Shown: piece by piece, positions 32,770-34,490 of the stretch
Layout: each line of letters begins with the position of its first letter
How positions within the stretch are numbered: the stretch's first letter is position 1
Sequence record: PQ390715.1
Source of the DNA: Escherichia phage SHEFM2K
Reading direction: 5' to 3' (one strand)
Length of the DNA stretch: 64,000 nucleotides
Made by a program: the position numbers and the translations under genes
The notes under the pieces: model-generated
Seen by the model: the letters and a program-made list of their open reading frames with translations, nothing else
Told to the model about the DNA's origin: nothing
Database searches by the model: none

Positions 32770-33096
32770 CTATAGCAAGTCGTTATCCATATCATCCCAC
32801 ACAGAATCAATGATGTTTGCTGCTATCTTTTTAGACATTTTAAACCACTCCGTGTTTGGTTGTCTAGTTGCATTCATTTGTTTAAGCCTTTTATGTATCT
32901 CTTTTTCAGCTAAACGTGCGTCTTCAAAGTGAACTTCATGATAAACTTCAAAATCACGAAACGGGGTAGCTGTCTGATACGTTCTCAAACGCTCTGTCAT
33001 TTCAGATTTAGAAGTGAAACCAATCTTAACATAGTCAGGCCATGCAGAGTTTATTATAACATAACATATCTGTGACATAGATTCAATCTCCATCAT
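32770..33096 (-). CDS. GIY-YIG (T5orf172-like) nuclease domain protein
   Basis: 108 aa; CYVIINSAWPDYVKIGFT fits GIY-x10-YIG spacing, with downstream Arg/Glu candidates. Confidence 0.5.
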   Translation of the reverse strand: MMEIESMSQICYVIINSAWPDYVKIGFTSKSEMTERLRTYQTATPFRDFEVYHEVHFEDARLAEKEIHKRLKQMNATRQPNTEWFKMSKKIAANIIDSVWDDMDNDLL

Positions 33097-33117
33097 TAAT
33101 ATGGAGATATTTATCTA

Positions 33118-33477
33118 TCAACTAATAGTGAATTTTAAACCAATATCAATTAAACGTTGAAAAGGATTATGTGGCTGAAATTCCGATGGTTCTTGTGCTA
33201 TGTTTAGTACAGGAGCATCAGAATGCAGCACCGACATACGTTCTCTATAATGATCTATGTATTCTTCATACAACATATCTTCAGTATGTGTATTAAGTAT
33301 ATCTTCTATAAAAGAATCTAAACTATAATCCAATCTATCATCATTATAATACAATGTTTCAGTGGCTTCATCATATCCAACTAACGTACCATAAGGAACA
33401 TTTATTTCTATATTTGAGTACTGACTCTTTAAGTACTCTTCTTTGTTAAATTTGTATACAGTTAACATCCGTGTCAA
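33118..33477 (-). CDS. hypothetical protein
   Basis: 119-aa ORF between two GIY-YIG-like genes. Confidence 0.4.
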   Translation of the reverse strand: MTRMLTVYKFNKEEYLKSQYSNIEINVPYGTLVGYDEATETLYYNDDRLDYSLDSFIEDILNTHTEDMLYEEYIDHYRERMSVLHSDAPVLNIAQEPSEFQPHNPFQRLIDIGLKFTIS

Positions 33478-33491
33478 CTCCTTTAGATTGT

Positions 33492-34490
33492 TTACTTAGT
33501 TTTCCATTCTTTTATCATGGATAGTACTAATACCAAATCTTCTTCATTGAAAGTTTCAGTGTATCCATCAGGGAAATCTTCTTTTTCAACAACTTTATTA
33601 GTTATAGTACCTTTTATTTTTTGTTCGAGGTCTTGTGCTTCTCTTCGTGTTTCAAAGTTTTCAATTAACAAAACATCATGTTCAGTATGAGCATAATGTT
33701 TTTGTTGACTAATTCTACGATTGATATCATTAGTTACACCCAATTTATAAAATACACCTTTTGTTGGGTGAGTTATTTTTTGTACATATAAAGTTGATGG
33801 TTCACGCATAGTACCTTCACTTTCGTTACATACGGGGCAATGTTCTCGGTTAGTTTTTCTGAAGTTTGCTAATGATTTATAAATTTTTATATCTTTGTGA
33901 AGTGAGCACCCAAATACACACTCGGTAAGATGATAATCAAACGTTTCATCATATTGAAAATCATCATATGTGTACTTGTCACCATGAATTTTCATCAACT
34001 CTTTTTTCATAATATTTGTATCTTTTCGTTTAGAAGAAATCATTCGTTCTTTGCCGCATTCTAAACATCCAGCGTTTTTACCAACAAATCCATCATATGA
34101 AATTTCAAATTCCAAATCATGCTTATAACATACGAACTTTACTTTTGAATTTTTCTTATCAACATAATAGCAGGTAGAAATATATTCCCACGGTTTGTTC
34201 TCATTTTGTATTCGTGACAAACATGCATGTTTATATTGACTTTCAGTTTTAGGAACACTAGTCCCGTTCTGCTGTTTCATTATACCACAATGTTGACATT
34301 TTTTTCTTGATGAGAAGTTATCGATACTACACGACAATATAGAAGATTTACAATCCCAGCATGTGTATGAAAAATTACTTTTGGCATTTTTAAAATTAAT
34401 TATTTTATGAAATACAATGTTTAAGTTGTTAGTTTTTATGATGGTAAGAATCTTGTCTACGTAATATTGTTCATCGAATTTAGAAGCCAT
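33492..34490 (-). CDS. zinc-ribbon protein with C-terminal GIY-YIG-like domain (homing-endonuclease-like)
   Basis: 332 aa; several CxxC pairs (CWDC, CQHCG, CLECG, CPVC); C-terminal LYVQKI...GVFYKLGVTN...RR...E resembles a GIY-YIG/T5orf172 core; Lys/Asn-rich composition unlike flanking genes. Confidence 0.5.
   Translation of the reverse strand: MASKFDEQYYVDKILTIIKTNNLNIVFHKIINFKNAKSNFSYTCWDCKSSILSCSIDNFSSRKKCQHCGIMKQQNGTSVPKTESQYKHACLSRIQNENKPWEYISTCYYVDKKNSKVKFVCYKHDLEFEISYDGFVGKNAGCLECGKERMISSKRKDTNIMKKELMKIHGDKYTYDDFQYDETFDYHLTECVFGCSLHKDIKIYKSLANFRKTNREHCPVCNESEGTMREPSTLYVQKITHPTKGVFYKLGVTNDINRRISQQKHYAHTEHDVLLIENFETRREAQDLEQKIKGTITNKVVEKEDFPDGYTETFNEEDLVLVLSMIKEWKTK

Follow-up and report, generated by a model that had tools for sequence, protein, structure and literature searches.

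Several described phage systems bear on a nuclease gene that stands alone beside a capsid gene. T5orf172 is a subfamily of the GIY-YIG nucleases, and its phage members carry repeated zinc modules of the CapR, DUF723 and DUF4379 types; 31% of phage T5orf172 genes are found close to a capsid gene, one locus can have several alleles, and domain shuffling occurs (Barth, Dunham & Seed 2023, PMC10448857). For SegG of phage T4 it is established that cleavage takes place at a distance of a few hundred bp from the segG gene, with co-conversion of the markers in between (Liu et al. 2003). CapR, from the PLE satellite, represses the capsid operon of phage ICP1 (PMC8096241), and Odn is an origin-directed nuclease of ICP1. 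The paper on phage CBB lists only HNH elements in RaK2-like phages. Here, a 64,000-nucleotide (nt) stretch of Escherichia phage SHEFM2K (PQ390715.1; “the window” below) is considered, in which a T5orf172 gene, geneA, occupies a slot between the major capsid gene and a small gene, geneB. Asteriusvirus and this slot are not treated in PMC10448857, where GAP32 appears for a different gene.

The window genome is a PBECO4/121Q-like jumbo coliphage of the genus Asteriusvirus, RaK2-like and with T4-like core genes. Its flanks around the slot are 99.5% identical to PBECO4 and 98–99% identical to 121Q, SP27 and slurp01, all of them Asteriusvirus. Positions 32770–34490 are filled by three minus-strand open reading frames (ORFs), geneA, geneB and geneC, flanked by the major capsid gene and the tail-fibre gene, after which come a tail-fibre assembly gene and DNA polymerase:

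34630–35805, minus strand: major capsid gene (Pfam Gp23, E=1e-89)
33469–34558, minus strand: mobile cassette, with its own promoter and leader, the geneA ORF and a 3' spacer holding the geneB ribosome-binding site; absent from PBECO4
33492–34490, minus strand: geneA, 332 amino acids (aa), T5orf172 homing-endonuclease-like gene of the W type (Pfam T5orf172, phrog_681, 121Q gp604)
33118–33468, minus strand: geneB, 116 aa, acidic, no recognised domain (phrog_15724; ATG at 33468)
32770–33096, minus strand: geneC, a stand-alone T5orf172/GIY-YIG domain, fixed core gene
31119–32729: tail-fibre gene (phrog_13229)

On sequence comparison, it is quite probable that geneA is a free-standing T5orf172 homing endonuclease gene that resides at a fixed slot and co-converts the 3' end of the capsid gene, and that geneC is a domesticated, fixed nuclease. 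A preliminary description of the stretch had taken both T5orf172-like genes for homing endonucleases. For geneA this holds up, given its domains, its cassette, its sporadic presence and its gene-conversion-like flanks; geneC, which is fixed and has no DNA-binding domain, does not share in it.

How does the locus compare with the described systems? Like the ICP1 T5orf172 genes, geneA has a C-terminal T5orf172 domain after repeated Cys/His modules, is free-standing beside an essential gene (the capsid gene), has several divergent alleles at one locus and bears signs of domain shuffling. In a tblastn search, ICP1 tcgB (“tcgB putative homing endonuclease”) aligns with 89% of geneA, with an identity of 22.7% (E=3e-9). 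Unlike the set of Barth et al., geneA belongs to a lineage of RaK2-like jumbo coliphages, its W-type zinc modules 2 and 3 fall below Pfam detection, and at its capsid-slot locus the signature of co-conversion in the capsid gene is resolved at the population level. With the T4 Seg family, and SegG in particular, it shares a free-standing position between conserved genes, membership of the GIY-YIG superfamily, its own promoter and a sporadic distribution, and the cleavage site, here deduced, would likewise be hundreds of bp away from where the cassette is inserted, so that the markers between the two would be co-converted. Unlike the Seg proteins, it is of the T5orf172 subfamily, has zinc modules instead of Seg/I-TevI type domains and is known from sequence alone. 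Like CapR, geneA adjoins a capsid gene, and its putative DNA-binding region is related, by a weak Pfam match, to the zinc-finger family of CapR. Unlike CapR, which has lost its nuclease domain, geneA has an intact and highly conserved one, in a gene that is dispensable and polymorphic. A place for geneA among CapR-like domesticated repressors, a class defined by loss of the nuclease domain, was therefore rejected. The phenomenon itself has already been described (Barth et al. 2023), and the capsid-slot cassette is a well-resolved natural example of it, not a new class.

What suggests that geneA is a mobile gene? First, its presence at one site is sporadic among close relatives. PBECO4 lacks geneA, with geneB directly following the capsid terminator, and its flanks show no mismatch to the window in 2.9 kb of capsid and scaffold genes and one in the intergenic region. 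Blastn homology to PBECO4 and fEgEco12 ends at 33468 and restarts at 34558/34559. When a 6-kb query was compared with 50,697 phage genomes, no record covered more than 86% of it, and geneA was the uncovered piece. In the same slot, 121Q and SP27 carry a different “endonuclease” of 365 aa, 26% identical to geneA (E=5e-23). The synteny comparison that the preliminary description had proposed thus came out in favour of mobility for the larger gene. Among the phage genome records searched, the W type is carried only by TH47 (86.7% nt identity) and JNE01 (79%); the exact geneA protein of the window is found on 17 public contigs, and all eight W-type lineages that could be placed have their W-type gene in the same slot. 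Occupants were compared at thirteen Asteriusvirus loci, which have at least five alleles other than W:

Empty: PBECO4 and fEgEco12
W type, 332 aa: the window type
Q type, 365–368 aa: 121Q, SP27, Turkey3 and A4
S type, 305–307 aa: slurp01 and WPEC5
EC.P1 type, 300 aa: EC.P1
Turkey5 type, 406 aa: Turkey5; 50% identical to RaK2 ORF095
UE-S1: an unrelated protein, 552 aa long, in which DUF7487 is joined by a restriction-endonuclease-like MTES_1575 region (UE-S1 locus 4988–6646); ph0011 likewise, by match length

The slot can also be followed across genera, where the gene order is capsid, slot, geneB, geneC, tail fibre, (assembly protein), small gene and DNA polymerase, with RaK2, in which geneC is replaced, as the sole exception:

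Pectobacterium phage CBB: empty
GAP32: GAP32_251, a 77-aa C-terminal T5orf172 remnant, 43–47% identical to the W type (GAP32 locus 3183–3416)
RaK2: a 408-aa relative of the Turkey5 type
Klebsiella phage fENko-Kae01: a relative of the S type (67%)
Salmonella phage SE_PL: two genes

Match spans suggest that empty, S-type and Q-type isolates each number 7 or more, and the Salmonella SD phages and CMSTMSU are empty by match length. The 121Q gp604 and slurp01 proteins pass the Pfam cut-off for DUF4379, and the Turkey5 protein passes those for CapR, DUF723 and DUF4379. The UE-S1 occupant is unrelated to T5orf172; therefore, a second nuclease family appears to use the slot as a landing site. GAP32_251 looks like a decayed slot occupant, and CBB, of the same genus, has an empty slot. 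In SE_PL, an extra 207-aa gene without a Pfam match lies between the slot nuclease and geneB (SE_PL locus 2854–3477).

Second, the capsid gene next to the slot varies in an unusual way. In close relatives with other alleles, mismatch density within ~0.5 kb of the slot is 9–31 fold that of the other 7 kb (mismatches near the slot: SP27, 28 of 44, p=3e-16; 121Q, 85 of 106, p=1e-59; slurp01, 61 of 111, p=1.5e-28; binomial). The capsid protein is identical in the window, PBECO4, 121Q, SP27 and slurp01, and synonymous divergence (dS) is 0.29–0.64 in the last 91 codons versus 0.02–0.03 in codons 1–300, a 10–20 fold excess that includes a full TCA/AGT switch of a serine codon. Two features of the capsid gene matter here:

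34630–34903, minus strand: last ~91 capsid codons, a hypervariable, purely synonymous tract and, from dS and haplotype linkage, the putative co-conversion tract
34849–34866, minus strand: capsid codons 314–319, with the Leu318 codon as a purely conjectural candidate for a target or immunity polymorphism

In its capsid 3' end, 121Q is 95.2% identical to A4, which also carries Q, and 88.2% identical to the window; for the rest of the gene the values are 92.4% and 99.2%. For the S-type pair slurp01 and WPEC5, identity is 96.3% in the 3' end versus 94.1% in the rest of the gene. Capsid 3' haplotypes thus sort by nuclease allele instead of by backbone, as would be expected if homing were accompanied by co-conversion. 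Similarly, 37–39 of the 45–47 right-flank differences between TH47 (W) and fEgEco12, WPEC5 or Turkey3 fall in the first 300 bp, as do 21 of 25 between JNE01 (W) and Turkey5, and the tract ends at 34879–34903 in three independent backbone pairs. Hence, natural variation, as distinct from crosses, suggests that flanking markers are co-converted with the cassette.

Could the same pattern have arisen by passive exchange? Cassettes might be swapped by general homologous recombination between co-infecting phages, in which case the nuclease would be inactive or play no part and the capsid 3' block would be an old hitch-hiking polymorphism. Phage recombination is frequent, the shared 3' junction of the cassettes and the capsid terminator offer homology, and there are independent patches nearby, in the centre of the tail-fibre gene (31710–32400) and in swaps of the fibre C-terminus and assembly protein. 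This explanation is nonetheless quite unlikely. Divergence is concentrated at the slot, the same tract boundary recurs in the three independent pairs, and synonymous divergence is elevated in an essential protein that is otherwise invariant. Moreover, both halves of geneA are under purifying selection, and each cassette has kept a strong promoter.

Within the variable tract, Leu318 is TTG in 8/8 W lineages and in PBECO4, which has a W-type flank, and CTA in 10/10 other genomes. The association of this codon with the W allele has a Fisher p of 1.2e-4, not corrected for phylogeny, and it is the codon to which the W-linked capsid signal narrowed when more W lineages were added. Among capsid 3' sites private to a nuclease type, there is one for Q and none for W if PBECO4 is counted as non-W. 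A stretch of ~75 nt at 34754–34830 (capsid codons ~326–351) is almost invariant in nucleotides across 14 genomes and separates the hypervariable synonymous clusters at 34651–34753 and 34831–34903. It could be a constrained recognition region, or it could reflect an RNA or codon constraint.

Third, the geneA protein has the parts of a nuclease. The preliminary description had placed two GIY-YIG/T5orf172-like genes between the capsid and tail-fibre genes and had asked for a domain search; both genes exceed the Pfam T5orf172 (PF10544) gathering score of 20 bits, geneC with 50.3 and geneA with 26.0. The core motifs it had quoted were found at residues 11–28 of geneC (CYVIINSAWPDYVKIGFT) and 234–254 of geneA (LYVQKI...GVFYKLGVTN). 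The domain match of geneA covers residues 235–329 (E=1.3e-5), and residues 22–330 match phrog_681, “endonuclease” (E=4e-38). MUG113 also matches both genes over the same region as T5orf172. NCBIfam gave no match for geneA, geneB or geneC, and a local hidden Markov model of the domain found no third T5orf172 copy in the window. The protein divides as follows:

33495–33812, minus strand: residues 227–332, T5orf172/GIY-YIG nuclease domain (YVQ, YKLGVT, RR, E284/E289, TETF), from Pfam and alignment
33813–34490, minus strand: residues 1–226, putative DNA-binding region of three Cys/His zinc modules of ~65 aa, with invariant ligands

In a motif alignment, as opposed to a structure superposition, catalytic residues Y235, G251, R258/R259, E284/E289 and E312 are invariant in six sequences. 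The nuclease domain is the best-conserved part of geneA and varies hardly at all between W-type homologues. Ahead of it, at the N-terminus, are three zinc-finger modules predicted to bind DNA, with ligands C44/C47/C65/C68, C121/H124/C142/C145 and C195/H198/C218/C221. The several CxxC motifs noticed earlier in the larger gene are therefore four pairs (C44/C47, C65/C68, C142/C145 and C218/C221), joined by C121/H124 and C195/H198, and all of these ligands are invariant across the five database homologues. In a Pfam scan, module 1 matches CapR with 20.3 bits, below the cut-off of 24.2 (E=6e-4). As a whole, the zinc region aligns to phrog_681, 121Q gp604 and RaK2 ORF095; phmmer with the zinc modules found nothing significant in the other slot occupants. 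An AlphaFold model, built from only six sequences, has a whole-protein pLDDT (predicted local distance difference test score) of 48.5, with residues 228–332 alone confident (~80); the modelled nuclease domain has strands and helices in the order right for a GIY-YIG fold (strand-strand-helix-strand-helix). Foldseek returned no significant match for the model, UPF0213 and SLX1 appearing only at E ~1–2, and a sequence search of the PDB with geneA and geneC profiles gave nothing useful.

The evolution of geneA is that of a gene under purifying selection, with a ratio of nonsynonymous to synonymous divergence (dN/dS, or omega) of 0.13–0.15 overall and ~0.1 in both halves. The dS of the DNA-binding half is 8–12 fold above that of the nuclease half, a contrast that indicates intragenic recombination or domain exchange. 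The Lys/Asn-rich composition that had been said to set geneA apart is real relative to the capsid gene (18.7% Lys+Asn and 30% GC versus 8.7% and 43%), and it is less distinctive than claimed: the scaffold gene has 16.7% Lys+Asn, and GC at third codon positions (GC3) in geneA (0.225) equals that of its neighbours. The low GC is therefore due to amino-acid content and is not a foreign-DNA signature, and a foreign origin argued from GC was rejected.

Fourth, geneA comes as a self-contained cassette. The cassette measures 1.09 kb and lies between the capsid-gene terminator and the geneB ATG; its ORF stands by itself in an intergenic slot flanked by conserved genes and is not part of an intron or intein. 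Its borders and signals are:

34567–34586, no strand assigned: capsid-gene terminator hairpin (AGGGACTC-TTCG-GAGTCCCT), marking the right edge of the slot and conserved among most relatives
34520–34548, minus strand: sigma-70-like promoter, TTGTGA-17 nt-TATTAT with a TG extension, 29 nt before the geneA ATG
33469–33498, minus strand: shared 3' junction, AAGTAA ACAATCTAAAGGAGTTGACACGG ATG, which supplies the geneB ribosome-binding site

Turkey5 has a variant form of the hairpin. Taken alone, the promoter match in the window is not significant as a single site. At the same position, Q-type cassettes have a perfect TTGACA-17-TATAAT and S cassettes an 11/12 match with TG, and cassette promoters always lie 28–35 nt before the ATG. 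Empty slots contain no plausible promoter, the best matches (8/12) overlapping the geneB ribosome-binding site or ATG. A late-promoter motif (CTAAATAC) seen in empty slots was dropped as a candidate, as it is not enriched in the window. Within the PBECO4/121Q-like genomes (window, 121Q, SP27 and slurp01), W, Q and S cassettes all have one and the same 3' junction, which is near-identical in most other T5orf172 cassettes; that of A4 differs, and empty slots lack it. The PBECO4 slot holds ~47 nt absent from the W cassette, and interconversion of empty and W slots is therefore allele replacement, not simple deletion.

Several observations weigh against a homing endonuclease that co-converts its flank. 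The cassette of the window itself shows no visible co-conversion tract when compared with PBECO4: mismatches do not cluster at the slot, and there is one linked single-nucleotide polymorphism (SNP), at 34616. Contigs L019 and L020 are PBECO4-like throughout except for the cassette and the G at this position. WPEC5, which is occupied, equals fEgEco12, which is empty, in the capsid gene, meaning that the 3' haplotype is not strictly tied to occupancy. The divergence of W-type proteins (77–86% aa identity) roughly parallels the backbone and would also fit a gene that was inherited vertically for a long time and later lost. The tract boundary could stay constant passively, if crossovers took place only in the high-identity DNA beyond an old divergent block. 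Pfam did not recognise modules 2 and 3, even with each module scanned separately, and the model of the DNA-binding region is unreliable (pLDDT <50), so that the folds of the zinc modules are not assignable. Lastly, no experimental homing of any T5orf172 gene was found in the literature. As a separate observation on position 34616, which lies in the interval between the capsid stop codon and the terminator, all PBECO4-like W contigs have G, and PBECO4 and all other isolates have T. The G does not occur in TH47 or JNE01, and it is the sole flank marker tied to the cassette in the window lineage.

Some of these points would suit a geneA whose T5orf172 product has been domesticated for some phage function, the gene being immobile at present and the diversity of the slot being ordinary divergence with occasional deletion. 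Such a protein could be a repressor or regulator near the capsid gene (like CapR or I-TevI) or a nuclease directed against satellites or host DNA (like Odn). Purifying selection on geneA, the rough parallel between W-type and backbone divergence, the lack of a tract around the window cassette, and the weak CapR match of module 1 in a gene adjoining the capsid gene (PMC8096241) are all in keeping with it. Domestication remains rather unlikely, however, as geneA has intact catalytic motifs and is best conserved in its nuclease domain, near-identical genomes differ in whether they have the cassette, and unrelated alleles, one of them a non-T5orf172 nuclease, sit in the same slot. In addition, capsid 3' haplotypes go with the nuclease allele on different backbones, and the remnant and the empty sites indicate that the gene is dispensable.

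The smaller T5orf172 gene is of another kind. geneC has the stronger domain match (50.3 bits, E=3.7e-13) and also shows the GIY-YIG fold, a three-stranded sheet with flanking helices. It is 108 aa as listed, with a likely start at Met7 (33078) that would give 102 aa, and has a conserved acidic C-terminal tail, DDxENxLL. Residues Y12, G26, R36, E64/E66 and E83 are invariant in 26 sequences, again by motif alignment and not structure superposition. The protein consists of the nuclease domain only, with no zinc-finger DNA-binding module, and compares with minimal GIY-YIG nucleases of the SLX1 and UPF0213 types. It is 68–78% identical in aa in jumbo phages of Yersinia, Pectobacterium, Serratia, Xanthomonas and Salmonella, with a dN/dS of ~0.04 and saturated dS, and adjoins geneB in 13/13 Asteriusvirus loci and in CBB, GAP32, fENko-Kae01 and SE_PL, as well as in Mimasvirus. 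At the loci examined, its presence is not sporadic among close relatives, and only RaK2 differs. This is the very outcome that the preliminary description had named as refuting a homing endonuclease, namely the same gene at the same locus in relatives, and for the smaller gene the claim falls. Since geneC is present in nearly all relatives and strongly constrained, it is not a mobile element; the most likely reading is a fixed, strongly constrained, domesticated and possibly partner-dependent nuclease. PADLOC matched geneC alone of the three genes, to the N-terminal ~95 residues of the candidate defence protein PDC-S57 (E=2.7e-17) and to the nuclease region of PD-Lambda-1; as a sign of a defence system this was set aside and read as shared-domain similarity, probably nothing more.

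geneB, acidic and without Cys, has no nuclease domain and no match in Pfam, NCBIfam or PADLOC. It is found in 62 phage records, always adjoining the slot, and is conserved in all RaK2-like phages examined, though only ~30% identical across the jumbo phages in which geneC is 68–78% identical. The proteins reported from virions of fENko-Kae01 and CBB include neither geneB nor geneC. In RaK2, an unrelated 244-aa protein without T5orf172 takes the position of geneC (RaK2 locus 3904–4638), and geneB is kept, at 47% identity. The idea that geneB is the missing DNA-binding partner of geneC is weakened by this, as RaK2 keeps geneB beside an unrelated gene. On these comparisons, neither geneB nor geneC behaves as a mobile element.

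Do the two T5orf172 genes together form a homing endonuclease island that mobilises the tail-fibre (host-range) gene, as the preliminary description had suggested? The nuclease domain is present in both, and in slurp01 only, a left-hand tract runs through geneC and reaches ~330 bp into the 5' end of the fibre gene. Gene-conversion-like tracts otherwise run mainly into the capsid 3' end, and the fixation and constraint of geneC across genera and its lack of a DNA-binding domain speak against a two-gene island. Fibre and nuclease alleles are unlinked. The fibre gene of the window is 99.9% identical to that of 121Q despite their different nuclease alleles, and the window, 121Q and SP27 have identical fibre alleles with different nuclease alleles. 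Conversely, the same nuclease allele occurs with different fibre alleles in the window versus contigs L019–L022, and in L027 versus L028: the W contigs L019–L022 carry the PBECO4 form of a patch at 31710–32400, and the window carries the 121Q/SP27 form. An identical nuclease (P0029) stands beside two different modules of fibre C-terminus and assembly gene, with a break point 1.4 kb into the fibre gene; the module swaps of WPEC5, Turkey3 and Turkey5 have break points at 30603 and 31341. These module break points lie inside the fibre gene, at least 1.4 kb from the slot. Thus, fibre and nuclease alleles assort independently, mobilisation of the tail fibre is not supported, and the two-gene island is scarcely credible. 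Two features of the fibre region can be described in their own right. The patch in the centre of the gene comprises 17 SNPs, with PBECO4 and L019–L022 sharing one haplotype and the window, SP27, 121Q and slurp01 the other, and is a separate recombination patch unlinked to the nuclease allele. In some relatives (L008, L009, L013, L027 and L030), a longer fibre (569–572 aa, Gp53-like_C) replaces the C-terminus and assembly gene at 30603–31341, leaving these genomes with no assembly gene, a host-range module swap with break points within the fibre gene.

How might the homing cassette work? In a mixed infection, the geneA nuclease would be made early from the cassette's own host-type promoter and would cut a co-infecting relative with a different or empty allele. 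The cut site would most probably lie within the last ~100 capsid codons, ~300 bp from the slot, and repair from the cassette-bearing genome would copy not only the cassette but also the capsid 3' end that lies in between. The cassette-bearing genome may be shielded by synonymous site differences, for which TTG at Leu318 is one candidate. The slot is an old one, common to all RaK2-like jumbo phages examined, with a history of invasion, allele replacement, decay (the GAP32 remnant) and loss (PBECO4, fEgEco12 and CBB).

A more speculative extension can be entertained, tentatively and with doubt. The T5orf172 nucleases of the slot could form a series of mutually antagonistic alleles, each cutting the capsid 3' haplotype of its rivals; separately, geneC and geneB could be a domesticated remnant serving a core function through a partner protein. 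If true, nuclease warfare among co-infecting jumbo phages would drive the 10–20 fold synonymous excess in the capsid gene and also the fast turnover of zinc-finger recognition modules.

What does the capsid slot mean for the biology of these phages? Current understanding of the T5orf172 class is unchanged by it. T5orf172 homing endonucleases are abundant in phages and almost entirely predicted, and here the slot lies in culturable E. coli phages, with near-isogenic genomes that are cassette-positive, cassette-negative or carry another allele (the window lineage, PBECO4, SP27 and slurp01). This gives a narrow, testable prediction, namely a cut at capsid codons ~300–325, along with which synonymous changes protect. 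Phage therapy with Asteriusvirus, or the engineering of these phages, could draw on the slot as an insertion site that is permissive by nature. More broadly, a selfish element of this kind can shape the silent-site evolution of an essential structural gene.

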